Counted from the first letter of the stretch, positions 234-32,257 are shown. The stretch: DNA of 64,000 bases from an uncultured bacterium (GCA_963702025.1 OY969699.1:1532034-1596033); one strand, 5' to 3'. The notes: generated by a model from the sequence alone, not told the origin. Translations and numbers: made by a program.

Positions 234-1218
234 ATGAATACAAAAAATATTTCTTTAAGAAGTCTTGGCGTCTACACTCTTATTTGCAGCCAGGCACTCA
301 TAGCCGCTCCAACGTTTGAAAAACAGTGGCAATATGCAGCATGAATATAATCGCATATGCAATTCCCTTAAAAAGCAAGGTCTGGAAGAATTAGAAGAAA
401 CACATGTGCATCCGTATTGGCAAGCCGAGAAAGAAGAAATAAGAAATTTTATATTAGGCGCACCCGAAAGCAATTTTCTAAGTAACTGGCAAATCCGTTA
501 CAATATGGTCAGAAAAGAAATGGGGGCTGCTCAAACGTATGAAATATGTTACTTGGAACATTGCATCAGCGAAAAGACAAAAAAACAACTTGCGCTTTTT
601 AAAGAAAGTGATTTCGCACAACTTGATATAGACTGTTATCAATTCAATTGTTCAAGCAATACGCTCGGACATCTTTTTTATGCTGCAAAAGTCTTGGAAA
701 ACAAAAAAGATTTACCCATTAATACTATTGTTGAATTTGGTTCAGGATATGGAAACTTGGCACATATTTTTAAAACAATTTTACCCGACTCAACTATTTT
801 CCTCATTGATTTGCCGGAAGTATTAGCAATTCAGCTTCTTTTTTTAAAAGCAACAATGCCAAATGTTCCGGTATATTTTCATTCGGAAGCATGTGCTACA
901 TACCAAGAAAAAGCGATCCATCTACTACCAATACACCTTATTAAACAACTTACTATTAATACCGATCTTTTCATTTCCACTTTTGCGTTAAGCGAATCCA
1001 CACAAACCATACAAAGATTGGTCATAAAAAATAACTTTTTTAATGCCAAAATGGTGTATATTACCGGGCAAATTGATGGCTGGGGAAATCTCGATTTTGT
1101 ATCTCACCCAATCATCATCAGCGCAGTAAAAAGCTATTGTAAAACAACGCAGTGCCAACCAATGCATTATATTTTAGGAGATCGTGTTTCATACGAAATT
1201 TTAGGCACAACGTATTAA
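234..1218 (+). pseudogene. Putative sugar O-methyltransferase, frameshifted between signal peptide and catalytic domain
   Basis: ATG 234 gives MNTKNISLRSLGVYTLICSQALIAAPTFEKQWQYAA* (TGA 342-344). The body is in the +1 frame (316/334..1218) with IVEFGSGYG, LIDLPE and DLFISTFALSE motifs. Confidence 0.6.
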
Positions 1219-1989
1219 AATTGCATAAATAGAGAGCAGTAATGAGAATAATATCAAAAATTGGGATCCAACAGCTCGGTTTTTTATTCAGCATTTTTTT
1301 TATTGCAGCACTAACGGCAAATCCCCTCGGGGCAACAACAAACCAAACCGATTTGATTATTTATTCCTATGATCGCCCCATGCAACTCTACGCGCTGCTT
1401 GAATCAATCGAAAAGTATGTCACGGGACTAGCAACTATTTCTGTTATTTACCGCACCAGTAATCACGCATTTGAAGAGGCATACAAAGAGGTTCAAATCC
1501 ACTTTACCAACGCACATTTTTTCAAACAATCACCACCGTATGATGATCTTAAAACATTAACGTGCGCATGTTTTGCCCAAGCCAAGAGCCCGTATATCCT
1601 TTTTGGCGTTGACGATATTATTGTTAAAGATTTTATTAATCTTAATGAATGCATAGATGCGCTCGAAGAATCACATGCTCATGGCTTCTTCTTTCGGCTG
1701 GGGAAAAATCTTGATTTTTGCTACGCAATGAATTGTTCTCAACCTCTGCCACTTTTAAAAAATGTCCGGCCATGCATATATTCCTGGCATTTTAATGAAG
1801 GGCTTTATGATTGGCACTATCCTCATAACCTTGATTTTACCCTGTACTCTAAATCAGATTTTGAAAATCTGATTGAATCACTCGATTATAAAACTCCCTA
1901 CTCATTAGAATCACAACTCATGGGCCATGTGGAGTATAGTAGGATTGGACTTTGTTATGAATCATCAAAGATTGTTAACTTCCCTCTTA

Positions 1990-2913
1990 GAGCCTATCTG
2001 AAAACTAAATTTTCTTGATAATGATTATCTGGAAGGCGAATTGCACTAATGCAAGAAAGTTAATGGATAACTTTTCATAGCGAGTGAAAATGCGCCTAAA
2101 TCGATTTATCCAAGAAAAAGTTCTTTCAACTACCCATCGTTTTAAATCTTTCTCAGAAGCAACACGAGGTTTGTTTTTCGGCTTCTTTGGAGGCATGACA
2201 GGAGTAAAATTTCTTTTGATGGCTTCGGCCTTATTTTTTTTAGAAACAAAGCCTTTATCTGTGCGAAGATAATGATTTTTGGATTGTGGTATTTGTTGTT
2301 GCAAATTATCAATAAGGCTTACAAATACTTGCGTATCATGCCGATTGCCGCTCGCAATAGTGGCTCCAATCGGGATTCCTGCTTCTTCAACAACAAGATT
2401 TAATTTTGTTCCTAATTTTCTTCGATCCACAGGACTTTTTCCTGTTTTATCACCTCCTAAAGGCGATTTTTTATGGTTAGAGTCTATTGATTGATCATGA
2501 AGAGCTAGGCCTATTTTTCGATCATAAAGCATCAAAACTGTTTTCCAAATTTTTTGAAAAGCACCCGCTCGAATAAGTTCTTTAAATCTTTGATAAATAG
2601 TTTTTGATGGGCCAAAACATAATGGCAGAGCTTCCCATTGACATCCAGTTCTTAACAGATAATACATTCCAGCTATTAATGGTTCGTTATCCACACGAGG
2701 CCGCCCTGTTTTTTTTGGCGGAATATTTGCTGCTATAAAGTTATGAAATTCTTGCAAAAGTGGTTCAGGTATGACATATTTTGATGGTATAATTTCTTTG
2801 TAATTTAAAAGCTTCATATGAAAAATCCCTCTTTGTTTGTGTTGCTACTACAAGAGGGATTGTATTTTTTCTATCTATTTTTTCAACTGCCTACAGAGTT
2901 TTCAGATAGGCTC
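1990..2913 (-). mobile_element. IS5-family insertion sequence (IS1031-like), 924 bp
   Basis: Perfect 17-bp terminal IRs GAGCCTATCTGAAAACT (1990-2006, 2897-2913); TTA target duplication at 1987-1989 and 2914-2916. Confidence 0.95.
2005..2817 (-). CDS. IS5-family DDE transposase
   Basis: GRPR, YLLRTGCQWEALP, TDKGF and RWVVERTFSWINRFRR motifs. Confidence 0.95.
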   Translation of the reverse strand: MKLLNYKEIIPSKYVIPEPLLQEFHNFIAANIPPKKTGRPRVDNEPLIAGMYYLLRTGCQWEALPLCFGPSKTIYQRFKELIRAGAFQKIWKTVLMLYDRKIGLALHDQSIDSNHKKSPLGGDKTGKSPVDRRKLGTKLNLVVEEAGIPIGATIASGNRHDTQVFVSLIDNLQQQIPQSKNHYLRTDKGFVSKKNKAEAIKRNFTPVMPPKKPKNKPRVASEKDLKRWVVERTFSWINRFRRIFTRYEKLSINFLALVQFAFQIIIIKKI

Positions 2914-4526
2914 TTAATATCGTGCAAACCGATTGGCCAAACAATTGCGATAATAATTATGGCACCACGCAATTACTCGAACTTTTTAACCAAGATCTCA
3001 AAATTGACATAAAGCCCATTCATGGCATTGCCAATAAATCGGCCCATATCTCCGGCAATACATTAATTACCTTCGTACCCCGTAAACCGCTTGATGAGAA
3101 GCTTATTGTTATCGTAACCCCTTCGTATAATAATAAAGACTGGTGGGAGTGGAACCTTTCTTCTCTTTTGAATCAAAACTATAAGAATTATTACATTCTC
3201 ATCACCGATGATTGCTCAACGGACGGCACCGGCGATGCATTGGAAAATTATATTACAAGCAACAATCTTGAACACAAAGTAAAACTGATAAGAAATAAAA
3301 AACGCCGTGGGGCATTATATAACCACTATATGATGATTCATGGTTGCCCTAATGAGGCAATAATTGCAAACGTTGATGGGGATGACAAATTACCAGATGA
3401 TCCTGAAATATTAAATAGGCTTAATATGATTTATTCGTTGCAAGATGTCTGGCTCACCTATGGGCAATTTGTAGAATATCCTAGTGGCCAAAAAGGATGG
3501 TGCTGCCCTATTCCTGAAAATATAGTTAAAAATAACTCTTTTAGAGAATTTACCCATTTGCCATCACATTTGCGAACCTATTATACGTGGCTTTTTAAAT
3601 GTATAAAGCTTGAAGATCTCCTTGATCGCACCGGTAATTTTTATTCAATGACCTGCGATTATGCGATGATGCTCCCCATGATAGAAATGGCCGGGGAACG
3701 GCATCTCTGCATACAAGATCAAATTATGTATGTCTACAATAGTAGCAATAATCTCAGCGATCACAAAATCAGCAGACAACTCCAAGCTCATATTGCTCAA
3801 GTAATTTGCGCAAAAAAACGATACAACAGACTTCCTGAGAGTGCAGAATCTTTTGCTCAAAACCTTGAAAATGAAAAAGCTGATTGGATTATTTTTGCAG
3901 AAGATGCCAACCCTGAATTATTAGAACGATTTATCATATCAATACAACACAAAGTTACCGGAACCGGTGAGGTCTACATTCTTTATCTTTCATGGCCCAC
4001 AACCGTTGAAAAATACAAAGAATTAAAAGAAAGATATTCTACCGTTAACTTTCTTGCAATCGATGAAAACCGTACTAATTTTAAAGAACTACTCACAAAT
4101 CTGTATCATTATCAACTTAAGCATAATTATGTGCTCTTTTCTTTGGCAAATAATATTGTAGAACAACCAATTAATCTTACTGATTGCATTCAAGCATTAG
4201 AAGAAACGCAAGCATATTCATTTTCATTAAAACTTTCAAAAGAAAATTCCTGCTACCCGCTTCCTAAACATATGCCATTGCTTGAAATACACAATGATAT
4301 ATGCGCATGGAATTATGCGTGCGCAACTGATATGTGGGCATGTGCAAATAGCGTGGACCTAATGCTCTATCGCCGAAAAACACCAACTATTTCAAGTACT
4401 TTGCAAAACTATTGGATGTATTCGTGGATACATTTTGTTGGCTGGTGGTCACAAGAAGGTAATTTAGATAAAATTGGTCTTTGTTTTAAATATCCAAAAA
4501 TAGAAGAAGTAAAATAACGGCAAAAA

Positions 4527-5555
4527 ATGAGTATTTTTCTCAATAGAATCAATCTCTTATTACTATTATTTGTTTACATAGCCAACGCTTCAGATTTTTT
4601 TTTGACCGGTGATATTTCAGATCTTTCTTCAAATGCAAAACGAATTGCCTGCGATTTAGGTAAAATTACCGTGCTCACCCAACCAATTCACGAAGAAAGT
4701 TCACAAGCAATTCAAGGCCATTTTGCCGTTACGGGTAGTGTGCTGCGGGGGTTGAGAAAACTAGGTCTTCCTATGAATTATAACCCAAAAACTATTGATG
4801 AAGTTGGCGACCATCTCTTTGTACTGGTAAATATCGATGCTTTATATCAGGCAATAGAATTGAAACGGCAAAAAAAAATTAAAACTTTAACTGTAGGCCC
4901 GAATATCTTAAATAATCCTTCTGAATTTAATCATGTTTTAGGATCGCCAGAGATTGATTGGTATATCGCACCATGCAATTGGGCCCGAGATTGCAATGTT
5001 GAAGAAGAACCACTAATAAAAAACAAAACAGCTATTTGGTACGCGGGAGTTGATACTGAATATTGGAAACTACAGGAATCAAAAAAAGAAACAAAAACAA
5101 TGTTAGTTTATTGGAAAACTGAACCGGAAAGCTTTTGCATAGAAATAGAAAATATTTTACATAAGCATGGCTGGAAAACTAGGCGATTGCGCTATGGCAG
5201 CTATTCGCACGAAGTGTATAAACAAGTACTAAATGAAGTAGATGCTGCCATCTTTATTAGTTCCTCAGAATCACAAGGAATTGCACTTGCAGAGTGCTGG
5301 GCCATGGATGTGCCTACTTTGGTATGGAACCCGGGAAGAGTTTTCGTCCATAATCGATGGGTAGAGGCTAATTCAGCGCCTTATCTAACAGCGGCAACTG
5401 GATTTCTCTGGCAAACAATTACTGAATTTGAAGAATTATTGAATAATTTTGAACAACTAAAAAAAAAATTCAAGCCCCGTGCATGGATTATCGATTATAT
5501 GAGCGATGAGGCATCTATTTATTTATTACTAGATCTCATAAGATATTCGCTATAA
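4527..5555 (+). CDS. GT-B (GT4-like) glycosyltransferase with signal peptide
   Basis: SSSESQGIALAECWAMDVPTL (E-x7-E-type motif); hydrophobic N-terminus ending ANA. Confidence 0.75.
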   Translation: MSIFLNRINLLLLLFVYIANASDFFLTGDISDLSSNAKRIACDLGKITVLTQPIHEESSQAIQGHFAVTGSVLRGLRKLGLPMNYNPKTIDEVGDHLFVLVNIDALYQAIELKRQKKIKTLTVGPNILNNPSEFNHVLGSPEIDWYIAPCNWARDCNVEEEPLIKNKTAIWYAGVDTEYWKLQESKKETKTMLVYWKTEPESFCIEIENILHKHGWKTRRLRYGSYSHEVYKQVLNEVDAAIFISSSESQGIALAECWAMDVPTLVWNPGRVFVHNRWVEANSAPYLTAATGFLWQTITEFEELLNNFEQLKKKFKPRAWIIDYMSDEASIYLLLDLIRYSL

Positions 5556-5624
5556 CTTGTACCATTCATTTTTATATGGTAGAAAATTGCATATCATGTA
5601 AGCACAAAAAAAGGAAATCTAATT

Positions 5625-6410
5625 ATGTTCACTTTTTTTATCATTTTATTATTTAGTTCTTTTGCATATGCTGTAGAAGCACAAAATCTCTATTTAGATT
5701 TAATGAAAAAATGTTTAATCAATTCAATCTATCAAGACCCAGGCTGTAAAGAAGGAGAGGGCCCATATCAAAAAGAAATTCGAGAAAATGGACTTGATTG
5801 GCCTCATACGGCTCATACTATGATAGGCCTTGGCAGACTTAATAACCTTCAATTTTGTGTAGAAGAGGTATTAAAAAACAATATCCCTGGTGACTTAATA
5901 GAAACAGGAGTATGGCGTGGAGGGGCGACAATCTTCATGCGTGCTATCCTGAAAGCATATAATAATACAGAAAAAAAAGTGTGGGTAGCTGATTCATTTG
6001 AAGGGTTGCCAGCACCTAAACCATGGCTCTATCCCGCAGATACAGGCATTCAATTACACGCGTATAAACAATTAGCAATCTCATTAGAACGAGTAAAATC
6101 AAATTTTGAACGTTACGATTTGCTTGATAATCAAGTCTGTTTTTTAAAAGGATGGTTCTGCGATACATTGCCCACAGCACCTATAAAACAAATATCCGTT
6201 ATGCGTCTTGATGGCGATTTATACGAATCGACAATGGATGCATTAATAAATCTATACCCGAAGCTTTCAATTGGGGGCTATGTAATTATAGATGACTATG
6301 GGATGGAATCATGCCGCAATGCTGTATTGGATTTCAGAAAACAATTTGGAATCACTGATGAAATGCATTTTGTAGATCACACCGGTGCATTTTGGAAACG
6401 AGCTCAATAA
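5625..6410 (+). CDS. TylF/MycF/NovP-family sugar O-methyltransferase with signal peptide
   Basis: GDLIETGVWRGG, VWVADSFEGLP, RLDGDLYEST; N-terminus MFTFFIILLFSSFAYA. Confidence 0.9.
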   Translation: MFTFFIILLFSSFAYAVEAQNLYLDLMKKCLINSIYQDPGCKEGEGPYQKEIRENGLDWPHTAHTMIGLGRLNNLQFCVEEVLKNNIPGDLIETGVWRGGATIFMRAILKAYNNTEKKVWVADSFEGLPAPKPWLYPADTGIQLHAYKQLAISLERVKSNFERYDLLDNQVCFLKGWFCDTLPTAPIKQISVMRLDGDLYESTMDALINLYPKLSIGGYVIIDDYGMESCRNAVLDFRKQFGITDEMHFVDHTGAFWKRAQ

Positions 6411-6434
6411 TTAGTCTCTTTTTTCCAAAGAATC

Positions 6435-7100
6435 ATGAAAAAAATAATTATTTTGTTAGTCCTAACGTTAGCACAAAAAACATATTGCCAAGAAATAAAA
6501 ATCATTTGCACCGCTGCATTGATAGACCAAAATTTTGAAGAACGCAAAATTGAATATATTAACTCATTAGAAGTTTTATCTTCATATGGTTATAGTAATC
6601 CATACGTTATTGAAGCCATAAAATCAACTGGCCCTACCTTTTTAGACAATTATTCATGCAAGGTTATTTACACCAAGGTAAACAACTCTAATTTACACAA
6701 TAAAGGAGTTAATGAAGCGAAATCAATATTAGAAGCCTTGAAATACTTGTATATTGATGATAATGATATGTTAATTAAAATTACCGGAAGATATTTTTTT
6801 ACTTCGAATGCATTTCTTACACTAGTAAAAGAATCACCTGGATTTGATGGGTTCATCAAAACTGATAGCCATAATCAAGTCTTCACTGGTTGTTTTGCAC
6901 TACGGTATAAACATTTTAAAGAATTTCTCTATCAGCTTAATTTAGAATTTATGGAAAACAACATGATTAATATTGAATGGGAATTGGCACAATATATTAA
7001 TTCTTTAGAAACAAACCAAATAAAAATCATGAAAGTAGAAAATCTGGGTATTACTGCGAATATTTTTGGAAATGGTAATCCTATTCTGACTTATTGGTAA
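6435..7100 (+). CDS. Hypothetical secreted protein, probably glycosyltransferase-related
   Basis: Signal peptide MKKIIILLVLTLAQKTYC; NKGVNE and IKITGRY motifs; operon context. Confidence 0.55.
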   Translation: MKKIIILLVLTLAQKTYCQEIKIICTAALIDQNFEERKIEYINSLEVLSSYGYSNPYVIEAIKSTGPTFLDNYSCKVIYTKVNNSNLHNKGVNEAKSILEALKYLYIDDNDMLIKITGRYFFTSNAFLTLVKESPGFDGFIKTDSHNQVFTGCFALRYKHFKEFLYQLNLEFMENNMINIEWELAQYINSLETNQIKIMKVENLGITANIFGNGNPILTYW

Positions 7101-7115: not shown

Positions 7116-7838
7116 GTGAAAAATCAATATATTTTCGGCACTATTTTAATGCTCATATTACGCATCGAGGCAAATCAGTCTCTTGATTCTTTAGGACTAG
7201 AATATGGAACCGACAAAAGCTCAATTTCTCACGCTTATACAAAAATCTACGAGAAGTACTTTTCACCATTAAAAGAAAAACCATTAAGATTTTTAGAAAT
7301 AGGATTTTTTCAAGGTAATTCAGCGCATATGTGGGAAAAATATTTTAGCGATGCACAGTTATTTTTTATAGATATAGATCCTTTAACAAGAAATTTTTTC
7401 CAAAACTTTGCCAGAGCCAAGCTTTCTATTGTAAACCAAGAAAATCCAAACGAACTTAGTAATTTTATTAGAGAAGTTGGTGGCGATTTTGATATTATTA
7501 TTGATGATGGCGGACATACAATGAATCAGCAAATCATTAGTTTTAAAGTTTTATTCCCATTCCTTAAATCAGGTGGGATCTACGTCATTGAAGATTTGCA
7601 TACATCGTATACTTATATCCCTGATTATGAGCGCTTCCATTATAATAATACGCAAGGGCAAACCGCCGTTGAATTTTTACAAAGTCTCATTCACTCAATT
7701 AATAATGTGGGTGCTAGAAATGGCTGCGCTGACTTTTCTAAATGCCCCGAATCTCTTTATTCGCTACTTTCCAAACATGAAAAAGAGATCGAATCACTAC
7801 ACTTTTATTGCTCTTTATGCTTTATATTTAAACGATAA
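7116..7838 (+). CDS. Class I SAM sugar O-methyltransferase (MycE-like) with signal peptide
   Basis: YGTDK, FLEIG, FDIIIDDGGH, GGIYVIEDLHTSY; GTG start after AAAGGA. Confidence 0.8.
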   Translation: MKNQYIFGTILMLILRIEANQSLDSLGLEYGTDKSSISHAYTKIYEKYFSPLKEKPLRFLEIGFFQGNSAHMWEKYFSDAQLFFIDIDPLTRNFFQNFARAKLSIVNQENPNELSNFIREVGGDFDIIIDDGGHTMNQQIISFKVLFPFLKSGGIYVIEDLHTSYTYIPDYERFHYNNTQGQTAVEFLQSLIHSINNVGARNGCADFSKCPESLYSLLSKHEKEIESLHFYCSLCFIFKR

Positions 7839-7848: not shown

Positions 7849-8616
7849 ATGTATCTAACTATTATTTTGGGCATGCTATTAAATTGCATATCAATTTCTT
7901 GTCAAAATTATAGTCTACTACTACATACAAATAAAAATTTTCTTACAGAGTTAAAGGAATTATCTTTATGGCCTGAAAACATACCTTTAAAACTCCACTT
8001 AGGTTGTGGCGAAAATCATATCAATGGCTATATTAACATAGATTATCCCCCAGTAGAACATACTGTACAGGCTACCTCTGGCGCAGACATTTTTGCCGAC
8101 ATAACCACACTTCATCTTCCTCAAGAGAGTATTGACGAAATTCGCTCTCATCATGTTTTTGAACATTTTGACCGTCAACAGGCTCTCGCTCTCTTATGCA
8201 ACTGGCACCTACAACTGAAAATTGGTGGCACCCTTATTATCGAAACGCCTGATTTTGAAAGAAGCGCAAAATTAATACTTTTAGATGATGCTCTTTCTTA
8301 TAAAGAAAAACAAGCAATTTTAAGACATATTTTTGGCTCTCATGAAGCGCGATGGGCCATCCACTGTGATGGATGGTATGAAGCAAAATATCGGCACGTT
8401 CTACCGCTTTTGGGTTTTGAGGATATTACAATTGAACATTCTCGCTATTTAAATCTCTGCAATATAACCGTGTCGGCACGAAAAACAAAAAGTCTTTATT
8501 GCAATGAACTCATATGCATTGCGCAAGAAATTTTACAAGAAAGTCTTGTGGCTGAATGTGAAACAAAAATGTATCAAGTATGGTGTGAACAATTTAATAG
8601 GGCTATGTTTCAATGA
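7849..8616 (+). CDS. Class I SAM methyltransferase (type 11-like) with signal peptide
   Basis: KLHLGCG...GYINID, SHHVFEHF, LKIGGTLIIETPD. Start moved to ATG 7849 (AAGGAA upstream; avoids overlap with the previous gene). Confidence 0.8.
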   Translation: MYLTIILGMLLNCISISCQNYSLLLHTNKNFLTELKELSLWPENIPLKLHLGCGENHINGYINIDYPPVEHTVQATSGADIFADITTLHLPQESIDEIRSHHVFEHFDRQQALALLCNWHLQLKIGGTLIIETPDFERSAKLILLDDALSYKEKQAILRHIFGSHEARWAIHCDGWYEAKYRHVLPLLGFEDITIEHSRYLNLCNITVSARKTKSLYCNELICIAQEILQESLVAECETKMYQVWCEQFNRAMFQ

Positions 8617-10355
8617 AAAAAATTATAATTGTATCAAGTCTTCTTTTGTTGTTAAAGACGATAAACATCATAGCTTATACTATTTATGAAAATTCTGCTG
8701 AATATGTAAATGTAGGATTCGACAATTGTGACATGCATACAAATGGAGAAGAGGATATCATTTCTCATTTTATCAAAAATCGAGAAACGGTATTCGATAT
8801 TGGTGCGAATGTTGGATCCTGGAGCCAAAAAGTTCTAACGAAAGTTAATAGTCCTCTGATTTTTGCATTCGAACCCATTCCGGAGACTTTCAAAATATTA
8901 CAAAATAATTTGAATCATCCTAATGTTCACATTTTCAATTTTGCTTTTGCCGATATTAAAGGTTTCAAAAGCATTGCGTACTATGATGCATCTCTCATTT
9001 TAGCAGAACTTAGCTCTTTTTATCCTCGGCCTATTGTTGAAGAAATGCATCAAACCAAACCAACTTTTTTGAAAGTACCAACGCATTCAATAGATAGTTT
9101 TTGTAAAGAAAAAAAAATTAATAGAATCCATTTTTTAAAAATTGATACTGAAGGATCAGAACTAGACATTTTAAAAGGATCAATACAAGCATTAGCACAT
9201 AAAACAATCAATTGTATTCAATTTGAATATGGTGGGACTTACCAAGATGCAAAGACGACATTGCAAGAAGTTTATCAACTACTAACTCAAAATGGATATA
9301 TTGTATTTAGAATCATTCCAGAGGGCCTAATTAAGATATCACAATGGTCAAATGATTTAGAAAATTATCGCTATTCTAATTATTTAGCATTAGTAGATGA
9401 TGCTTTGTTAGCCACAGAGCAAAATTCACAACCAGCTATCATTTTACCTCTTTTACCAGTAAAATCAGGCAAACTCGGTTGGGCTGGTGGCCCGCTGAAC
9501 AAATCATTCTTGCAAACAATTCAAAAAATTTTTGATACATCGTTGCTTATCGAAACAGGCACATATAGAGGCGATAGTTCTGCAATTGCGGGAGATATAT
9601 TTGAACAAGTGTATACAATAGAATTAAGCCCTTCGCTCTATGAAAAGGCATGTCAACGTTTTATAAACGATCCTTCCATACTTCTTTATTGTGGAGATTC
9701 AGCAATAGTTCTGGAACAAATTTTGTCTTCTTTACAAAAGAAAGCAGTATTGTGGCTTGATGGGCATTGGAGTGGGGGAGAAACAGCAAAAGGAACAACT
9801 AACACCCCGATATTAGAAGAATTAAATGCGGTTAAAAAAAGTATGATAACAAATAGTATTATATTGATTGATGATATTCGTTTATTTCAAAAAAGTACGC
9901 AAAAAAATATTCATATATCTCTTGAAGGCTACCCGGAATTGAACATTATTATAGATGCCATTAGGCAAATAAACCCTAATTACTCGGTCTGGGTATATGG
10001 CGACATTTTAATCGCCTTTTCTGATTCAAATATTTCTGTAGCTCCTATTATTAGGGCAATGACAGTAAGTAGACTAAACATAGAAAATGAAAACAACCTT
10101 CTTGAAGCTGAAACAATAATAGCAAATGCTACAGAGGAAGAAATCTGCATTATAAAAGATTTATGCAATGATTTTGCGGATGATGGTGGATATGGCTTTA
10201 ATCGCTACTATCATTTTTGGTATGCCCTTACATTGTTAAAACGCAATGAAACTCTCGCATATAGTCATATGAAATTGGCCTCGCACGGAGGATGCCGAAG
10301 GGCAGAATACTATTTGCAATCTTGGCAATGGAGTCAAGATATTGAAACTTTTTGA
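8613..10355 (+). CDS. FkbM-family methyltransferase fused to a second methyltransferase-like domain, with signal peptide
   Basis: FDIGANVG, AFEP, LKIDTEGSE; second domain IETGTYRGD, WLDGHWSGG. Confidence 0.85.
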   Translation: MKKIIIVSSLLLLLKTINIIAYTIYENSAEYVNVGFDNCDMHTNGEEDIISHFIKNRETVFDIGANVGSWSQKVLTKVNSPLIFAFEPIPETFKILQNNLNHPNVHIFNFAFADIKGFKSIAYYDASLILAELSSFYPRPIVEEMHQTKPTFLKVPTHSIDSFCKEKKINRIHFLKIDTEGSELDILKGSIQALAHKTINCIQFEYGGTYQDAKTTLQEVYQLLTQNGYIVFRIIPEGLIKISQWSNDLENYRYSNYLALVDDALLATEQNSQPAIILPLLPVKSGKLGWAGGPLNKSFLQTIQKIFDTSLLIETGTYRGDSSAIAGDIFEQVYTIELSPSLYEKACQRFINDPSILLYCGDSAIVLEQILSSLQKKAVLWLDGHWSGGETAKGTTNTPILEELNAVKKSMITNSIILIDDIRLFQKSTQKNIHISLEGYPELNIIIDAIRQINPNYSVWVYGDILIAFSDSNISVAPIIRAMTVSRLNIENENNLLEAETIIANATEEEICIIKDLCNDFADDGGYGFNRYYHFWYALTLLKRNETLAYSHMKLASHGGCRRAEYYLQSWQWSQDIETF

Positions 10356-23193: not shown

Positions 23194-23375
23194 ATATTAC
23201 TCAGAAACAATAATATAAATCCACTTACGATTTTGTTCATTATATCTCCTTTTTAAAAATTGCAGATCATGACAAAGCTACTAAACAAATTATCTTCATG
23301 CAATCGAGGTACATAGTTTGTGAAATTCTTTATAATAATTTGCATTGTTTATAAGCAGAATCGTATTGTCGTAGC

Positions 23376-23617: not shown

Positions 23618-24733
23618 ATGAACACTTGCTCAAGAATTATTCTATCTCTTTTACTGAGCATAATTCCCACATCCTCTTTCTCTCATATCAAAAAAATTGC
23701 ACTTATTTTTGGCATCACGGGCCAAGATGGGGCCTATCTTGCCGAATTTCTTCTGGACAAAGGGTATGAAGTGCATGGTGTTAAACGGCGATCATCAAGT
23801 TTTAATACCGCCCGAATAGACCATCTTTATCAAGATCCGCATCATAATAACAAAAAATTTAGTCTCCATTATGGGGATCTATCAGATAGCGCCAACATTG
23901 CAAAACTGATTCAAGAAATTGAACCGGATGAAGTCTATAATTTAGGCGCGCAAAGCCATGTACGCGTTTCTTTTGATATCCCTGAGTATACCGCAGATAT
24001 TGATGCGCTGGGCACCTTACGCATTCTAGAAGCGATTCATGTATCAAAAAAGAAGATCAAATTTTATCAGGCATCAAGCAGCGAAATGTTTGGCAAAGTA
24101 GCAGAAATTCCTCAAACGGAAAAAACTCCCTTTTATCCCCGGTCACCTTATGGCTGCGCCAAAGTTTTTGCGTACTGGATCACGGTCAACTATCGTGAAG
24201 CGTATAGCATTTTTGCCTGCAATGGCATTTTGTTTAACCACGAATCACCCATCCGAGGAGAAACCTTTGTAACGCGAAAAATTACCCGCGCCGTTTCCAA
24301 TATTTATCGCGGCTTACAAGAGACTCTTTATTTGGGCAATCTTGATGCACAACGGGATTGGGGGTACGCAAAAGATTATGTGGAGGCTATGTGGCTCATG
24401 CTCCAACAAGATGAACCGAGCGATTATGTGATTGCCACCGGAGAAACTCATTCGGTGCGAGAATTTTGCGAATGCGCCTTTAAAGAAGTTGGCATAGAAA
24501 TAGAATGGCACGGCACCGGATCGGATGAAAAAGGCATCGACAAAAAAACCGGCAAAGTGGTCGTCGCAATCGATCCAATCTATTTCCGTCCGTCGGAAGT
24601 TGATCTCTTAATCGGTGATGCAACATACGCGAAAGAAAAGCTCAACTGGCACCCCCGAACTGATTTTAAAGGACTGGTGAAGATTATGCTTGATCACGAT
24701 TTGGGGATGACGAAAAAAATGAAGGATATCTAA
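23618..24733 (+). CDS. gmd: GDP-mannose 4,6-dehydratase (copy 2) with signal peptide
   Basis: [58 protein letters not shown]. Confidence 0.95.
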
Positions 24734-25530
24734 TATATCAAATTTTCTTCGGCATACCGATCCTGCAAATACGTCTTCCAGATTGCCGGATGCAACTCTT
24801 TGATCCACTGATCAATCTGTTTTCTATATTCAGCATCAATTAATTTTGAATGGAACAACAGATCATCACCGTGTGATTGCGATTCTCGATACAAATCAAT
24901 CGCTTTTTTCTTGTGAAAATCATAGTGATTCATAAAATCATCAATATAATCAAGCGGTTCGCCGAGGAACATAATCGCTCTCACCAGAGTTTGAATCGGT
25001 CTTGAAAGAAGGTCCTCATAATAAATTAGAAGCCGATTTTCCGGCGCCCATTCATCAAACAAGGCAATATTATCAAAATATATACGAGGATCGTCATTAC
25101 CCTTTGCCTGCTGCCCCAACAACATCGGTAGGGTAATTTCTCTACCGCCGTGCCTGCTTAATGCTTCCTTGGGATTACGAACAATCAAAATGAGTTTATC
25201 ATTAACAAAATCACCACCACTTTTACGAATTTCTTTACGCACGTGGACTTTTTCGATGGGTGGCCTGGTACAATCGATCTCAAATCCGGCCAACCAACCG
25301 ATCGGATGGTCACGTTTATTATTCCTATTAAAACGATGAAATGTTGGCCGACCCGTATTATATTCCAGACAATAGCGCATCCAAGTATTTCCCGAACGCG
25401 GATAAGATGCCAAAAAAGTTCTTTGCCCATCATAGGCACATAAAATATCAAGTAGCTGGTCAGCGTTGCTGTGGACTGTTGCACTTCCACTACAAATAAA
25501 ACACAACATAAGATAGAAAAATTTCCCCAT
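24730..25530 (-). CDS. PAPS-dependent sulfotransferase with signal peptide
   Basis: [11 protein letters not shown] (5'-PSB loop), [11 protein letters not shown] (3'-PB), YEDL. Confidence 0.85.
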
Positions 25531-25628: not shown

Positions 25629-26552
25629 ATGAATCATTTTGTATTAATTTCCATAGTCTCAGTGGCGTTTACTGCTGCCGCATACGAAAAAGATTTTACC
25701 ACACTACGACCAGTAACCATCGCCATATTAGCAAAAGATAAGGCACATTGTTTACCGCTTTATCTTTCCTGCATTGAAAAACAGACATGGCCCAAATCTA
25801 TGACCTATTTGTATATCCGAACCAATGACAATAATGACAATAGCGCACAAATATTGCATGATTGGGTTAATAAAGTTAAGGATCAGTATTTAGGCATCTT
25901 TTTTGATGATTCCGATGCGCCGATTAGTGTAAAACAATACGTTCAACATGAATGGAACTGTACTCGGTTCAAAGTATTAGGTGCAATACGTCAAGCTTCT
26001 TTGGATTGGGCTTACGAACATGGGTCACATTATTTTGTGATTGACTGTGATAACTTTATATTTCCCCATACGGTTGAAACAATGGTATACACGAATCTTC
26101 CTATAGTGGCGCCTTTGCTTCATAGCAATTGCGCATATTCAAACTTTCATGCGGATATCGACTCTAACGGTTACCTAAAAGATTCGCCATTTTATCTACC
26201 ATTAGTAAATAGAGAAATAAAAGGGCATGTACAAGTTCCGGTAGCTCATTGCACCTATTTTATTCGACATGAAGTATTACCGGAGATGAGTTACGATGAT
26301 GAAAGTTATCGCTACGAATATGTTATTTTTAGTGACAATGCACGGAAAAAAGAGATTCCACAATATCTTGATACCACCGATGTGTTTGGCTATGTTTCAT
26401 TTGCCGAAAACTCAAATGATCTGGTCAAAGAGCCATGGTTTTTGCCATTTACTATGAAATTACATAGTTTTAACCCTTCGAGACCCGTCTTCGCCAAGGC
26501 TACGCCGGGCACCGCGCACGCTCCTCAGCCTGCCCGCCATAGCTCTGAATGA
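25629..26552 (+). CDS. GT-A glycosyltransferase resembling the N-terminal domain of collagen galactosyltransferase COLGALT/PLOD; signal peptide; C-terminus recoded by a repeat
   Basis: IAILAKDKAHCLP, RTNDNNDNSAQILHDW, RQASL, VIDCDNFI, IVAPLL..AYSNF, VPVAHCTY. Confidence 0.75.
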   Translation: MNHFVLISIVSVAFTAAAYEKDFTTLRPVTIAILAKDKAHCLPLYLSCIEKQTWPKSMTYLYIRTNDNNDNSAQILHDWVNKVKDQYLGIFFDDSDAPISVKQYVQHEWNCTRFKVLGAIRQASLDWAYEHGSHYFVIDCDNFIFPHTVETMVYTNLPIVAPLLHSNCAYSNFHADIDSNGYLKDSPFYLPLVNREIKGHVQVPVAHCTYFIRHEVLPEMSYDDESYRYEYVIFSDNARKKEIPQYLDTTDVFGYVSFAENSNDLVKEPWFLPFTMKLHSFNPSRPVFAKATPGTAHAPQPARHSSE

Positions 26553-26574
26553 GCGACGGCTGGGGATGAGCGGA
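26473..26574 (+). repeat. Nested composite of palindromic repeat units
   Basis: CCCTTCGAGAC...CTCCTCAG|GGATGAGCGG frame containing CCCGTCTTCGCCAAGGCTACGCCGGG and CCTGCCCGCCATAGCTC...GAGCGACGGCTGG. Confidence 0.75.
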
Positions 26575-26575
26575 T

Positions 26576-27340: not shown

Positions 27341-27453
27341 TTTATTTTTTTTTTTGTCAGGGAAAGCAGAAGATGCATTTTTATTTGATTATAAAGGCTT
27401 TTTTAAAAAAATCACTATCCCTAGGCGCTTCGGCACTCACCAGGAAAGGGTAA

Positions 27454-28143
27454 TTAAACAAAATCAGCACGAACAAAAATATCATCAACATGAAGATGAG
27501 TAATCAGAATAAATCCCTTTGAGCAAAGAAAATCCTGAATATACGGCTCATTATAATTATTTTCTACGGTAATAACATCGATAGTAATTTTTGAAAAATC
27601 TATTGTTTTCAAGATCTCAAGTTCACTACCTTCTGTATCTAATGACATAAAGTCAATATGAGTGATCCCATATTTCCCTAGGAGAGTATCAAACCGCATC
27701 GCCGGCAGTTGTAATATTTTTGCTTCACCACCAAATTGGGCAATGTCATTCATTACTATAGCTAGTTGCCGCTCATCATAGGTGCCACACATGCCACTGA
27801 GCATTTCATCGCAACAATCCAAGTGTAAAAACGGCACCGTTCCTTCAGTGGAGCATACACAAGCATTAATGCACACACAACTACGGCATTGTTGTAATTT
27901 TTTAAAAAGATGTGGCAACGGTTCAATTGCTATACCTTTCCAACCCAAACGGTCAAAATAGTAGGTGTTACTAAAACTTTCACCGTCATGAGCCCCGATA
28001 TCCAAATAAAAACCATCTTTCTTATCATGAAAAAAAATCTCATTTACAAACTTGTCTTGCCCAGCTTGGCTCTTATAATTGTCGTCAGCAGAAACGGAGA
28101 ATGCCATCAAAAACAAAGAGAGTATGAGTAGTTTATTGTTCAT
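27454..28143 (-). CDS. FkbM-family methyltransferase with signal peptide
   Basis: SQAGQD, YLDIGAHDG...SNT, GWKGIAIEP, FMSLDTEGSE; start MNNKLLILSLFLMAFSVSA. Confidence 0.9.
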   Translation of the reverse strand: MNNKLLILSLFLMAFSVSADDNYKSQAGQDKFVNEIFFHDKKDGFYLDIGAHDGESFSNTYYFDRLGWKGIAIEPLPHLFKKLQQCRSCVCINACVCSTEGTVPFLHLDCCDEMLSGMCGTYDERQLAIVMNDIAQFGGEAKILQLPAMRFDTLLGKYGITHIDFMSLDTEGSELEILKTIDFSKITIDVITVENNYNEPYIQDFLCSKGFILITHLHVDDIFVRADFV

Positions 28144-28234
28144 TTTTTTCCTTATTAAATCCCCAAACAGGTGCAAAATTAATGGGCGAATGAGGAATTC
28201 ATTCGCCTGCTTGTAATATTATTCTATTTCACAC

Positions 28235-29476
28235 TCAGGCAAAAGCATTTTGTTGGGCAAGCTTACGATTTAAATAAAAAGAGAGATTCGTAAAAAGATG
28301 CGGATAATTATCATGCGTCTTCAATGCAGCACGAACCTCTTGCTCGCCCATGTCGAATTCACCGACGTACCAGGCGCATTGACCAAGAATATCATGACGA
28401 ACATAATCATATGCCTCTTTTTCTACAAAAAGTGTGTCATTGGCCGGATAAGGAACCTGACAAGCTCGTTGCGCAAACAAAAAGGCACATGCATGATTAC
28501 CTTCATGTAAATAATGTTGCGCTACACGAATAAGTGGCTCAACCCGGATCGGTCTCATCGTAAATGCTTGCAAATAATGATCAAGCGCTTCGGCCCAACA
28601 AGAACTGCCATCAGGATTTTTCATACGCTCAGTTACCGTTGCCAAACGATAGCGTGCCATAAAATCTTCCTCACACCAGCCAATTAAATGGGTACGTAAT
28701 TCATAGTAGTAATAGGCATTATCAAGATCACCTAGACAATCAAATGTTTGCGCCAAATAGAAGCAGGTACGAGAATCTTGGGGATTAGCTAAGAATGCTT
28801 TAAGAAGCAATTCTTTATCACGCATCCATCGCCGCTGCGTTTTTTCGGCGCCAGCCCGTTCAACTTTTAGCTCAAAATAAATGCTATTGGGTGTCTTAAA
28901 CTGTGTGCCTATCATAATCGTTTCGTGCACAACGCCGCCAAATCTCAAACTGGAACCGCCGCGCAAAAGACGTTGTGTACCAAAATCCAGGTCAGGTGAA
29001 ACGATTCGCACCAAATATGAAGTATGCTCAGGATGTTCAAGCTCCCGTTCGCAAAAAGCAAGCAACTCTTCAACCCCATGCAAATACCATTCGGCATCTG
29101 GCATTAACATATATCCCGCGTGAGGGAATTTTTCTCCCACCAAATCGAGCGCCCGATTACGGGAAGTGGCAAAATCAACAAACGGTTCTTGAATTATGAA
29201 ATAATTGGTCAAATGGTAATCCATAAAGAGCTCTTCGGCCTTGATCATCGTGGGCGATCGTGGATCAAGCCCCGTATCATAAACCACGTAGGCAATCTTT
29301 TCTCCCCGGGGATCTGCCTTGCAATACATTTCCAGAGTTTGTCTAATAACCGTTTCTTCATCTTTTACCATTATAACAACAACCAAAAGGGGATCGGGCT
29401 TGGCGGTTTGTGCATAGGATGACTCAATAAAACATGCTAGAAATAAGATAGCGCACAGCGCAGAAAGAAACTTCAT
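28235..29476 (-). CDS. GT2 glycosyltransferase with C-terminal TPR repeats and signal peptide
   Basis: IMVKDE, YDTG, DFATSRNRAL, MPDAE, GVVHE; FYLAQT and further TPR-like helices. Confidence 0.85.
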   Translation of the reverse strand: MKFLSALCAILFLACFIESSYAQTAKPDPLLVVVIMVKDEETVIRQTLEMYCKADPRGEKIAYVVYDTGLDPRSPTMIKAEELFMDYHLTNYFIIQEPFVDFATSRNRALDLVGEKFPHAGYMLMPDAEWYLHGVEELLAFCERELEHPEHTSYLVRIVSPDLDFGTQRLLRGGSSLRFGGVVHETIMIGTQFKTPNSIYFELKVERAGAEKTQRRWMRDKELLLKAFLANPQDSRTCFYLAQTFDCLGDLDNAYYYYELRTHLIGWCEEDFMARYRLATVTERMKNPDGSSCWAEALDHYLQAFTMRPIRVEPLIRVAQHYLHEGNHACAFLFAQRACQVPYPANDTLFVEKEAYDYVRHDILGQCAWYVGEFDMGEQEVRAALKTHDNYPHLFTNLSFYLNRKLAQQNAFA

Positions 29477-29608
29477 TTTTCTACTTCCTTTTTTTTTACT
29501 ACTGACTTGCTGCTATTTATAAAACAAGAATTTTAAAATGTCTACCGCTTAATTGATTTTAAGTTATACTGAAACTTGCTACTTACTTTTATAACCCTTG
29601 GACAATTA

Positions 29609-30532
29609 ATGTTTTTAATAATTATTTTATATGGCCTTTTTGGCGCATCATTTCCCCTAAGTAAAACACTTCTTGGGTTCGCCGACCCAATTTTCTATAC
29701 GGGCATCAGAATGTTTATTGCCGGTTCTATTCTTTTGATTTACCAATATTGTTATGCGCATCGTCATCTTAAATTTAACTGGCACAATAAGTGGTACTAT
29801 TTGCAAATTATTTTTTTTGGTATCTACTTAACCTATATTTTACGATTCATTGGACTTGGAACGTTAACCTCTTCCAAAACAGCCTTTTTGTTTAACCTTA
29901 TGCCCTTTTTCTCAGCATTTTATTCATTTTTAATGTTTAAGGAGAAGTTAACGCGCCAACAATGGCTTGGCCTAGCGATAGGCTTTGTTGGTTTTATACC
30001 AATACTCAAAACAACTTCACCACTAGAAAAGAGCTTGGGGGAAATTTTTTTTATTTCGTGGCCCGAATTGGCCGTTTTGGCAGCAGTGGCGGCACAAAGC
30101 TATAGCTGGATAATTATGCGAAAATTGGTAAAAGAAAAAAGTTATGCGCCGAGCATGATTAATGGCATGACTATGACGGCCGGCGGTATCCTTGCTCTTA
30201 TCACCGCCTATTTTTGGGAAGGCAAACAAGAAATGGCCGACCCGGGCGCTTTTTTGAGCTTACTCATTCTGGTGATTTTAATTAGTAATATTATTTGCCA
30301 TAACCTCTATGCCTATCTGCTCAAACGCTATACTGCAACATTCTTGGCATTCGCCGGCTTTTTAGGGCCATTGTTTTCAGCATTTTATGGCTGGCTTTTT
30401 TTGGCAGAAAAAATTACCTGGCATTTTTATGTCTCGGCAATCATCGTGTTTATCGGCCTATACCTTTTCTATCAACATGAACTGGAAGTAGTTGGTATTG
30501 CCAATGAAAAAAAGCACTTAATTCATGATTAG
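29609..30532 (+). CDS. EamA/DMT-family transporter
   Basis: About 10 TM helices; GIRMFIAG, KEKL...GLAIGFVG; ATG 29609 preferred over TTG 29576. Confidence 0.85.
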   Translation: MFLIIILYGLFGASFPLSKTLLGFADPIFYTGIRMFIAGSILLIYQYCYAHRHLKFNWHNKWYYLQIIFFGIYLTYILRFIGLGTLTSSKTAFLFNLMPFFSAFYSFLMFKEKLTRQQWLGLAIGFVGFIPILKTTSPLEKSLGEIFFISWPELAVLAAVAAQSYSWIIMRKLVKEKSYAPSMINGMTMTAGGILALITAYFWEGKQEMADPGAFLSLLILVILISNIICHNLYAYLLKRYTATFLAFAGFLGPLFSAFYGWLFLAEKITWHFYVSAIIVFIGLYLFYQHELEVVGIANEKKHLIHD

Positions 30533-31186
30533 AAATGTTTGTTTAATAAAATAATAAGAATTAAAAGTTAAAACTTTTTCGCCTCTTGCGTTAAAAGGAG
30601 GCTTTGATAAGTCTAAGGGACGATAGTCTCCCCTACCGATATCATAATTATCACTTGATAGCGTGGAAGCATCGAGACCATTAGTAATAAGAATGTATTT
30701 ATATTTGTGAAATTGCTTCATAACTCTGAAAATATCAGCATTTGTTAAATGCTGCAAAACATCTTTGCAAACCAGAAGATCCGCTACCGGAAGCTCACTA
30801 TTTAAAGCATCGGCTTGAAAAAAATGAATATTTTCTTTCTCGAAACGAGATTTATTACGGACTATAACTGATGCAACAACATCGTATCCTTTATAATCAA
30901 CCCCATCCCAATTCATGAATCGAGTAAATTCCCAATCACCACAACCGAGATCTACAACACTTTTTATACTATTTTTTTCTATAAAATTTTGCAGAAATTC
31001 ACGATATATTATCGTCACTTGATCGTCGGAACCCTCTCCACTCCAGCCAATACCTTCACAATTTTCTCCCCATACTTTATTAGCATAGATCTCAGAAAAG
31101 ATTTCTTGTGCCAGTTTGTTTTGACTCACATCTGCCTGAACAGCAAGACAGAGCAGTATTCCTAAAATACCCGTTAGACTACGCAT
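30518..31186 (-). CDS. Class I SAM methyltransferase with signal peptide
   Basis: FSEIY..W...SGEGS, VVDLGCGD, KDVLQHL. Confidence 0.85.
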   Translation of the reverse strand: MRSLTGILGILLCLAVQADVSQNKLAQEIFSEIYANKVWGENCEGIGWSGEGSDDQVTIIYREFLQNFIEKNSIKSVVDLGCGDWEFTRFMNWDGVDYKGYDVVASVIVRNKSRFEKENIHFFQADALNSELPVADLLVCKDVLQHLTNADIFRVMKQFHKYKYILITNGLDASTLSSDNYDIGRGDYRPLDLSKPPFNARGEKVLTFNSYYFIKQTFLIMN

Positions 31187-31204
31187 TTCTCTCTCCTCAT
31201 TAAA

Positions 31205-32257
31205 TTAGTTTATTTTAAAAAAACTTTTAACATACTGCAATGGATGAAAGGCTCCATGACTAATCTGATTAATTTCATCTTGATAAAAGATCAATAAACC
31301 AATAAAAGTCACGAATGACGCGTATAAGAAATTGAGGGTGAGTGGTTCGCCAAGGAGAATATTACTAAATAAGTACACATACAATGGTACTGAAAACCCG
31401 GCAAGCGAAACAAAGGTTGCAGTATGCCTTTTGAGAAAGTGCGCATACATTGTGTAGCCGATCACGTTACCGATAATAATCGTGTAAAGAACTGCAAAAA
31501 TTATTATATGGAGATTTGTGTCTGGCGTTACCGCTACATGCAAAAATTGTGTTGCATCAGAAAATGTATACGGTGCAAAATAACCCTTCATAAAAGGAAT
31601 TTTTTCTATTATAAAATTAGTACCTGCCCACAAAAAAGGAGTAACAAACGCAAGGATCCCACTTATGGTCATCAACAAACCATTTGCTTCGGGTGGTGTA
31701 TAACGGTCTTTGCGTAATAATTGCTGTACCAACATCCATCCTATCCGGCCAATGGCCATGGCAAGCAGTGCGGCAATTTCCGGGTATGAGAATATTGACC
31801 AAGCAATAAGCTGATTTTCTCCCGTTGATGATGAAATAAGCAAAATGAGTGTCCCGGCAAAGCCGAGAATAATGCCAATTATTTTTTTCTTAGTAAGCCG
31901 TTCAGCCCAAAAAAGATACGCGTATAAGGCAGTTACAAAGGGGTCAAGACTCGCCAAGAATGCAGCTTTTGAGGTGAGCATATTTTTTAATGCATATGCT
32001 TTAAAAAGTGCCGGCACCAGCATAGTTAATAATGAAATACCCAACAGAATAAAAAGATCTTGTTTAAAATAGGCAAAAGAAAGCCGATGACTCTTTTTGC
32101 GATAATACAACAAAAGAATTATCCCCGCGCCCAACATGCGCAGACCGACCATTAATGAAAGAGAAAGCGCTGAAAGCGCATATTTATTGGCAACTGTTGC
32201 ACTTGCTAAAAACGCAAAACCGAGAAAAACATCAAACATTACGGACAACCTTTGCAA
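31205..32257 (-). CDS. EamA/DMT-family transporter (paralog of 29609..30532)
   Basis: GLRMLGAG, SKAAFLASLDPF, FSYPE, YAHFLKRHTATF. Confidence 0.85.
   Translation of the reverse strand: MQRLSVMFDVFLGFAFLASATVANKYALSALSLSLMVGLRMLGAGIILLLYYRKKSHRLSFAYFKQDLFILLGISLLTMLVPALFKAYALKNMLTSKAAFLASLDPFVTALYAYLFWAERLTKKKIIGIILGFAGTLILLISSSTGENQLIAWSIFSYPEIAALLAMAIGRIGWMLVQQLLRKDRYTPPEANGLLMTISGILAFVTPFLWAGTNFIIEKIPFMKGYFAPYTFSDATQFLHVAVTPDTNLHIIIFAVLYTIIIGNVIGYTMYAHFLKRHTATFVSLAGFSVPLYVYLFSNILLGEPLTLNFLYASFVTFIGLLIFYQDEINQISHGAFHPLQYVKSFFKIN

Follow-up and report, generated by a model that had tools for sequence, protein, structure and literature searches.

How does a bacterium make use of a large set of sugar- and methyl-transferring enzymes that all appear to be built for export? 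The question is raised by a stretch of 64,000 nucleotides from an uncultured bacterium (GCA_963702025.1 OY969699.1:1532034-1596033; the window, below, is this whole stretch), in which positions 234 to 32257 form an island of glycosylation and methylation genes whose products begin with Sec-like leaders. Bacteria are known to keep nucleotide-sugar, S-adenosylmethionine (SAM) and 3'-phosphoadenosine-5'-phosphosulfate (PAPS) chemistry in the cytoplasm, and a lipid carrier takes the sugars out. For this island, sequence comparisons make it very probable that the enzymes are exported and act on donors taken from the host. They give roughly an even chance to a fuller reading, in which the Sec-exported enzymes build a surface glycan in the periplasm or envelope from host donors, probably begun on BclA-like fibres.

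The window is the final 64 kb of a 1.596-Mb genome assembled as a single contig and 95% complete. Named homologues of its EamA protein and of its glycosyltransferase with tetratricopeptide repeats (GT2-TPR) belong to Dependentiae/Babeliales, and the carrier is likely a Dependentiae bacterium, a protist parasite; described Babeliales are inhabitants of protists (PMC6561590, PMC12172432, PMC4378268). The genome encodes three TLC ATP/ADP translocases and parts of a type II secretion system (T2SS; two secretins, two T2SSF, GspE), and LpxC gave no match in the 95% of the genome that is available. This combination agrees with published Babeliales, which are reported to be without most lipopolysaccharide (LPS) genes (PMC4776705), and T2SS is the sole secretion system reported in B. 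massiliensis (PMC4378268). SecA, SecY, SecD/F and YidC are present, signal peptidase I (SPase I) was found in 3/3 genomes checked, and TatC in 0/3, this genome included.

Leaders were called by a hydropathy rule of our own, not by SignalP: a mean hydropathy of at least 1.9 over 10 uncharged residues starting within residues 2-18. The rule fired on 85 of 3249 internal Met-started windows, a false-positive rate of 2.6%. The island holds 25 soluble enzyme genes, two transposases, two EamA transporters and two small unrelated open reading frames (ORFs). Of the enzyme genes 22 are intact and three are broken, two by insertion sequences (IS) and one by a frameshift. The rule is passed by 21/22 intact ORFs, the exception being 10402-11232 at 1.85, and all three broken genes once had leaders, so that 25/25 are leadered now or were originally. 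A sequence-only reading of the window had described about 25 clustered genes, each with a leader ahead of the normal family N-terminus. The count and the main family calls stand, whereas "each" applies to the intact genes, one of them at the borderline, and had overlooked the broken ones. The placing of the leaders is borne out as well, since position 1 of the Gmd model falls at residues 24 and 29 of the two island copies and the TylF match starts at residue 27. In the Gmd at 23618 the next start codon does not come before residue 51, beyond the GxxGxxG motif at residue 32. By our rule, then, n-h-c leaders occur together with SecA/SecY and SPase I, as expected of Sec/SPase I substrates.

Pfam, NCBIfam and Protein Data Bank (PDB) searches bear out a TylF, FkbM domains in three genes, other SAM-dependent methyltransferases (about eleven methyltransferase genes altogether), GT2s, a GT4, a GT17, WecB, two Gmds, a sulfotransferase and, at E 2e-32, a COLGALT1-like gene. 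Where catalytic motifs were checked, they proved intact in 9/9 enzymes: both Gmds, WecB, the sulfotransferase, TylF, FkbM, GT4, GT17 and a GT6 encoded upstream. The features, in window coordinates, are as follows.

234..1218, plus strand: putative sugar O-methyltransferase (TIGR04371), with a frameshift near 316-344 and its leader in the 234 frame.
1242..4517, plus strand: one gene for a leadered GT2-like domain, a GT2 and a second GT2-like domain, split by an IS5 element; about 780 residues and intact in relatives L134 and L163.
1984..2910, minus strand: IS5-family element (transposase 2005-2817); one contig of public run X2 spans the unoccupied site.
4527..5555, plus strand: leadered unassigned protein, GT4-like by eye, with no Pfam match.
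5625..6410, plus strand: leadered TylF O-methyltransferase, motifs intact.
6435..7100, plus strand: leadered uncharacterised protein.
7116..7838, plus strand: leadered Methyltransf_24 protein.
7849..8616, plus strand: leadered methyltransferase (Methyltransf_11).
8613..10355, plus strand: leadered FkbM with a second methyltransferase-like domain.
10402..11232, minus strand: methyltransferase with the borderline leader.
11528..13111, plus strand: leadered FkbM-GT2 fusion, 57% identical over 499 residues to a protein, likewise leadered, from a chlamydia-like genome.
13227..14486, plus strand: leadered WecB (UDP-GlcNAc 2-epimerase), motifs intact.
14422..15330, plus strand: leadered GT-A protein with an Anp1 match and a weak COLGALT1 match.
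15337..16107, plus strand: leadered GT2.
16144..17385, plus strand: leadered GT4.
17398..18495, plus strand: leadered Gmd, a divergent copy on a long branch, 62% identical to the other Gmd.
18511..19509, plus strand: leadered unassigned protein, methyltransferase-like by eye.
19520..20302, minus strand: leadered uncharacterised protein with a glycosyltransferase-like lead; nearest Atlas clusters are phage.
20323..21021, minus strand: leadered Methyltransf_24 protein.
21056..23240, minus strand: GT17 gene whose leader (start at 23240) is severed by an IS; the present ORF, 21056-21889, is leaderless.
21866..23194, minus strand: IS (DDE transposase 21883-23133) with an 8-bp target duplication and an identical copy at genome position 861145.
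23618..24733, plus strand: leadered Gmd with no alternative start ahead of the Rossmann motif.
24730..25530, minus strand: leadered sulfotransferase, PAPS-binding motif intact.
25629..26552, plus strand: leadered GT-A protein matching human COLGALT1.
27454..28176, minus strand: leadered FkbM methyltransferase, start at the 12th codon.
28235..29476, minus strand: leadered GT2-TPR, SunS/ThuS/GmaR-like, a candidate initiating protein O-glycosyltransferase.
29576..30532, plus strand: EamA/DMT transporter of a backbone family, likely an importer of SAM or another metabolite.
30518..31186, minus strand: leadered methyltransferase.
31205..32257, minus strand: second EamA/DMT transporter.
50976..53345, minus strand: leadered protein containing a short collagen-type stretch of G-x-T, a minor candidate acceptor.

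Comparison with homologues indicates where the leaders came from. A search with one single sequence of the island GT2 gave no match, whereas an alignment-based search of genomes did, and the best 80 of its 199 matches supplied 73 bacterial loci. The family is leadered in 67 of these 73 (Babelota and chlamydial) versus 2/56 viral loci; by title, leaders were found in 18/19 Babelota, 12/13 Chlamydiota, 6/6 'Verrucomicrobia' and 31/35 unlabelled loci. In both leadered viral loci the leader sits on a distant upstream domain, and the other 54/56 are leaderless. For Gmd, 48 of 82 distinct Babelota copies are leadered, and 40 of the 48 lack any Met up to 8 residues from the core. On a quick version of the Gmd tree the leader state is clustered, with 9 changes versus 26 when shuffled (0/500); starred branches force only 2 of the changes. 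Leadered and leaderless Gmds lie side by side in four genomes (G035, G036, G044, G080). Leaderless Gmds often neighbour membrane proteins that are GT-C-like by eye, and the only 2 of 61 genomes with MetK both fall in the family of leaderless Gmds beside such proteins. On these comparisons the leaders are lineage-specific additions to these enzyme families, as had been proposed from the island sequence. The likeness to giant-virus glycosylation drawn in the same proposal holds only as a concept: the island GT2 and two uncharacterised proteins do have close viral relatives, but the closest viral look-alikes carry no leader, and most of the Atlas clusters belong to tailed phages.

Where would the donors come from? 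MetK gave no match in this genome and in 59/61 genomes of the phylum. ManC (10 queries), Fcl (15 queries) and APS kinase had no match in this genome; applied to 14 control genomes, the donor-gene family searches recovered the targets in 10 and 11 of them. A GalU-like protein and GlmU, both leaderless, are the genome's only NTP-transferases. With MetK, ManC and APS kinase not found, the two Gmds, the roughly eleven methyltransferases and the sulfotransferase are left without GDP-mannose (GDP-Man), SAM and PAPS of the cell's own making, and the donors are likely host-derived. The missing Fcl could be made up by host GDP-fucose or, by analogy, by a bifunctional Gmd giving GDP-D-rhamnose (GDP-D-Rha), as A118R of PBCV-1 is reported to be able to make it without Fcl (PMC9614988).

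The canonical routes for a glycan made in the cytoplasm were searched for genome-wide. Wzx (PF01943) and PMT_2 (PF13231) had no matches. For an initiating phosphoglycosyl transferase, PF02397 had none, and PF00953 a single one among 76 polytopic proteins, which was read as MraY and set aside. No polytopic GT-C enzyme was found at 1e-14 among these 76 proteins, several of which are unassigned, and instead of a linked Wzm/Wzt there were only two ABC2 ATPase/permease pairs far from the glycosylation genes. Nor does the island offer the leaderless, cytoplasmic set of glycosyltransferases and nucleoside diphosphate (NDP)-sugar enzymes that belongs to Wzx/Wzy or ABC pathways, all 25 being leadered now or originally. 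As judged by these tests the island is not a Wzx/Wzy, ABC or GT-C pathway, and the missing flippases and initiating transferase, first noticed within the window, are missing beyond it as well. Together with the lineage-specific leaders, the lack of any match for MetK, ManC, Fcl and APS kinase supports the earlier suggestion of a non-canonical pathway outside the cytoplasm that uses host NDP-sugars, SAM and PAPS.

In the reading we prefer, Sec would export the island enzymes unfolded into the periplasm or envelope, and SPase I would cleave them. Since export by Sec without TatC would be in the unfolded state, NADP(H), SAM and metals would have to load outside the cytoplasm. Host metabolites would pass through the outer membrane; ATP and SAM have to do so in any case if they are to arrive at the TLC translocases and EamA. 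Gmd, WecB and, elsewhere, leadered Ugd would re-tailor host GDP-Man, UDP-GlcNAc and UDP-glucose (UDP-Glc) on site. GT2-TPR would place the first sugar on Thr or Ser of G-x-T repeats, the other glycosyltransferases would lengthen the chain, and methyl- and sulfotransferases would cap it. The outcome would be a variable coat substituting for the missing LPS.

The proposed first step starts from the protein encoded at 28235. It is modelled as a GT-A fold followed by TPRs (predicted local distance difference test, pLDDT, 92); its best Foldseek matches are SunS/ThuS (E 1e-12) and its profile matches SunS and GmaR. The protein occurs in 52/151 genomes of the phylum, and 27/30 copies scored as leadered. 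In 10 of 29 relatives' loci (13/29 by a loose count) GT2-TPR has a G-x-T/S collagen run no more than 1.5 kb away, whereas the same distance around Gmd and around EamA gave 0/29 each. The neighbours with such runs are collagen proteins, leadered where the start is visible. In this genome the G-x-T genes are directly upstream of the island (the main ones at G000:C1:1509028-1523352), one with 264 G-x-T/S triplets. The surrounding region just upstream of the window (G000:C1:1504332-1526834) holds tandem leadered surface genes of delta-60 beta-propeller, G-x-T collagen and BclA_C-like type. In C. difficile, SgtA (GT-A plus TPR) adjoins bclA3 and is reported to put O-GlcNAc on Thr of GPT repeats (PMC7157674). 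From these sequence relations, BclA-like collagen fibres stand a slightly better than even chance of being among the acceptors. The COLGALT1-like protein of 25629-26552 covers human residues 14-254; the G-x-T runs contain no lysine, and hydroxylysine galactosylation of the fibres is therefore unlikely.

If the enzymes are exported, do they stay in the envelope or travel on to the host? In 265 of the 679 leadered proteins of the genome Met-[EDQN] occurs at residues 15-33; the preceding residue is A/G/S/P/C/T in 248 of the 265 and the -3 residue L/A/I/V/T/S/C in 238. The small residue before it makes this Met most likely residue +1 after cleavage. We defined a strict tag as a small residue-Met-[EDQN] immediately after the leader. 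It was found in 38/67 ankyrin-family, 6/8 leucine-rich repeat (LRR) and 15/22 hand-picked eukaryote-like (repeat or E3) proteins. Among envelope proteins, also picked by hand, 1/28 has it; glyco-enzymes show it in 0/38 cases in this genome and in 1/223 and 0/51 cases in relatives. The island enzymes, untagged like the envelope set, are thereby grouped with the envelope class, as a correlation. The tag is possibly a host-targeting or N-degron-avoidance signal. Given export, sequence evidence moderately favours the periplasm or envelope over a host compartment; the sequence-only reading had left both open, and the host cytosol is now the less favoured.

The tag also bears on the alternative that survives best, which we nevertheless consider unlikely: that the enzymes are exported by Sec, then released by T2SS or vesicles to the vacuole lumen or host cytosol, and from there glycosylate the surface of the bacterium, or else targets in the host. 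T2SS parts are present, and the same type of leader occurs on RING/RBR E3 ligases and on WD40, LRR and ankyrin proteins. The host cytosol would provide both the NADP(H) that Gmd requires and the Fcl for which the genome showed no gene, and there is a precedent in the C. trachomatis glycogen enzymes, which are reported to use host UDP-Glc in the inclusion lumen (PMC4829429). The tag of the effectors, however, is missing from the glyco-enzymes. Met-acidic N-termini are stable and acetylated in the eukaryotic cytosol, whereas the mature N-termini predicted for the island enzymes begin for the most part with residues that eukaryotic N-degron pathways destabilise. A bifunctional Gmd, too, can dispense with Fcl (PMC9614988, above). 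We therefore keep the periplasm or envelope as the preferred site. More tentatively, we propose that Babelota, and in part environmental chlamydiae, have a full lipid-carrier-free glycan pathway in the periplasm that shares host metabolites and glycosylates their own BclA-like fibres, within a Sec secretome split between envelope enzymes and Met-Glu/Asp/Gln/Asn effectors mimicking stable eukaryotic N-termini.

Several points weigh against a glycan pathway in the periplasm. The leader calls rest on our hydropathy rule, which 679 of the 1096 soluble proteins of at least 120 residues (62%) pass, and which fires on some housekeeping proteins, namely Lon, GlmU, PGI, G6PD, RNase HII and Ku; UppS was scored leadered in 4/14 cases, three of them with a real-looking hydrophobic extension. 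The 95% completeness of the genome bears on every gene-absence call, and for Wzy, which was not seen, the search was limited to Pfam on the 76 polytopic proteins. With GalU and GlmU the cytoplasm could make UDP-Glc and UDP-GlcNAc. NADP(H) exceeds the usual porin cut-off size. B. massiliensis is described as growing apparently in a vacuole (PMC4378268), as chlamydiae do (PMC3104491), and cytosolic donors are then not automatically reachable; a vacuole lumen, for its part, would not require the tag. Members of the 'envelope' and 'effector' sets were chosen visually among 300 of the 663 leadered proteins, together with a few window genes; 7/22 eukaryote-like proteins are without the strict tag, leadered GNATs, DOT1, nucleoside-diphosphate kinase (NDK) and LigD are untagged too, and relatives' Fcl has a Met near the leader in 11/15 cases. 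As to the acceptor, the G-x-T linkage, strictly counted, extends to 4/19 genera, one of which supplies 7 of the 10 loci, and, loosely counted, to 6/19, BclA_C matches of the neighbours are below the Pfam cut-off, GT2-TPR and the big G-x-T gene of this genome are about 38 kb apart, and a G-x-T gene lies within 7 kb of just 2/73 GT2 loci.

The high background rate shows that leaders are a habit of the lineage and not peculiar to the island. It is consistent with the signal peptides reported as predicted for 44% of coding sequences in C. destructans (Chromulinavorax; PMC6561590); in B. massiliensis 79/126 ankyrin proteins are reported with predicted signal peptides (PMC4378268). Outside the island, Pfam was run on 300 of the 663 leadered soluble proteins, at least 6 of the 300 being false positives, and NCBIfam on 150 of the 429 leaderless ones, where core housekeeping proteins were found, in a set picked as leaderless that gives no independent rate. 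UppS was considered as a second exported pathway and set aside as a weak control, the frames being mostly too short for a leader and the motif search having caught 14/30 loci. The hydrophobic extensions of 3/14 scored Babeliales UppS lack an internal Met, and leader-like N-termini were also noted on LigD (L036:10782-12221), an ATP-dependent DNA ligase (L060:8502-9524) and the single UppS (L064:4062-4910).

Such free addition of hydrophobic N-termini by Babelota would suit a second alternative, in which the leaders serve as anchors that are never cleaved, or are simply neutral extensions, and catalysis takes place in the cytoplasm with imported donors. The multi-copy EamA family could bring these donors in, and the old start Met retained, as a relic or a dual start, often just past the leader, in 11/15 relatives' Fcl (genes in L003-L030 and L111-L183) would permit internal starts. 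We regard this as quite improbable. Basic residues lie mostly ahead of short hydrophobic cores, as for export and not as for a cytoplasm-facing anchor; the leaders are diverse in sequence yet maintained over many genera; some genomes hold both leadered and leaderless Gmd, most leadered copies having no internal Met; and the searches turned up nothing that would flip or export a glycan made in the cytoplasm.

The EamA pair at the island edge raises one more possibility. Members of its family were found in 40/41 Babeliales genomes, frequently more than one per genome, and genomes without Gmd are among them. None of 29 best loci in relatives has a glycosylation neighbour within 1.5 kb, several lie beside a HIT gene, as here, and 0/73 GT2 loci contain an EamA. 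Synteny thus speaks against the pair as a dedicated island transporter, and by these comparisons it is part of the genome backbone. Chlamydial (CTL843) and rickettsial SAM importers are reported to belong to this transporter family (PMC3104491); import of SAM would be the simpler reading by analogy, given the missing MetK, and host SAM would then traverse the periplasm. That the pair instead pumps donors made or collected in the cytoplasm into a Golgi-like periplasm, as the sequence-only reading had allowed, has in its favour a weak nucleotide-sugar-transporter match of EamA 29576 (PF04142, E 8e-5, below cut-off), the EamA-EamA-GT2TPR-FkbM order retained in the same-genus genome L312 and the cytoplasmic GalU and GlmU, but is highly improbable for a backbone family in a cell whose cytoplasm apparently cannot make GDP-Man, SAM or PAPS and whose Gmd, WecB and Ugd are leadered.

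How would an exported, host-fed pathway compare with known systems? SgtA acts in the mother-cell cytoplasm on the cell's own donors. Like the SgtA-BclA3 pair of C. difficile, described as soluble, NDP-sugar dependent and free of a lipid carrier (PMC7157674), Babelota GT2-TPR has the GT-A plus TPR architecture and, in some relatives, a G-x-T collagen gene close by; unlike in that pair, the putative enzyme and its candidate fibre both have Sec-like leaders, in a diderm intracellular parasite. The C. trachomatis glycogen enzymes, too, use a host nucleotide sugar at a site beyond the cytoplasm of the bacterium, but are described as few, secreted by type III secretion and making a storage polymer (PMC4829429), whereas here Sec-type leaders are found on about 29 glycosyltransferases, methyltransferases, sulfotransferase and donor-tailoring enzymes, and the product is probably a surface glycan. 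Viral glycosylation (PBCV-1 glycosyltransferases and Gmd A118R; phage glycan islands) also combines soluble glycosyltransferases, Gmd and methyltransferases with host donors and no lipid carrier (PMC9614988); a bacterium, unlike the mostly leaderless viral enzymes, must export across its own membrane. The Wzx/Wzy, ABC (Wzm/Wzt) and GT-C/Gtr systems share the families Gmd, WecB, GT2, GT4, FkbM and TylF and probably the purpose of a surface glycan, but perform their NDP-sugar steps in the cytoplasm on an undecaprenyl carrier, with loading, flipping and polymerising genes that were not found here. From every system compared, the island differs in having Sec-type leaders on the entire pathway.

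The accessible parts of the Dependentiae papers on Sec/T2SS secretomes mention no glycosyltransferase, exported donor pathway or Met+1 subclass (PMC6561590, PMC4378268). The literature searched describes neither the Met tag nor, for Dependentiae or environmental chlamydiae, an exported glycan pathway; supplements (PMC4378268 Additional file 9, PMC6561590 tables) may list leadered glycosyltransferases. If true, an exported pathway that includes donor tailoring would be a new, host-fed route to a surface coat in which the whole pathway is moved across the inner membrane, and it would account for what an LPS-less protist parasite wears and for part of a very large secretome. The Met+1 tag, if it holds, would give a simple sequence rule to pick host-targeted effectors among hundreds of signal-peptide proteins of this phylum, and the link between GT2-TPR and G-x-T repeats makes the first step testable in vitro.

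Relatives of the island were also found in chlamydia-like genomes. Five of these (L147, L148, L160, L140, L176) hold similar leadered clusters of GT2, GT6, FkbM, Ugd and GT2-TPR, and in the five chlamydia-like genomes checked an SctV/FlhA-family protein is encoded in 5/5. The close relative of 11528-13111 in such a genome suggests, from its sequence identity, exchange between two parasite phyla. A putative Gmd at two chlamydial loci turned out to be only distant epimerases (24-26% identity), and true Gmd, found in 1/5 genomes, is leaderless; the leadered donor enzymes there are thus a Ugd-like protein and epimerases. A Parachlamydia GT6 has been assayed, with no mention of a leader in the accessible part of the report (PMC3516806).

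The island runs about 8 kb further upstream of the window, with a GT2, a GT6, a methyltransferase and one unassigned gene, all leadered. A gene at genome position 1531110-1532099 was considered as GT11-like on a sequence motif, found no match in Pfam or PDB and was left unassigned. The island is AT-richer than the genome, at 34-38% versus 39% GC. Further leadered glycosylation loci contain six tandem GT17 paralogues (G000:C1:496861-503326), five scored leadered, and Ugd with two GT2s (165200-169081); a second leadered sulfotransferase is encoded elsewhere. In the broken gene at 234 the leader is in the 234 frame and the body in the 316 frame, and relatives are intact and leadered. The 234-344 frameshift may be a sequencing error; contigs of a public run gave no coverage there. 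The IS5 element of 1984-2910 is apparently polymorphic, as the contigs of run X2 include some that carry the element and one that spans the site without it, and is a possible source of coat variation.

Other leadered proteins were noted along the way. The product of 37608-38330 in the window is an example of the Met-[EDQN] tag, which marks most ankyrin, LRR, WD40 and RBR proteins. Leadered proteins resembling E3 ligases of the RBR (IBR) and RING kinds, and a DOT1-like methyltransferase, lie at L034:15642-18807, L033:16663-17493 and L037:12957-13637, and L033:13798-14688 has a weak APH(6)-family phosphotransferase match below the NCBIfam cut-off. Leaderless and leadered nucleoside-diphosphate kinases lie side by side at L037:9761-10819; the leadered one could recycle UDP and GDP outside the cytoplasm. 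In the window itself, two adjoining genes at 38476-39808 are Dps-like by eye, one leadered and one leaderless.

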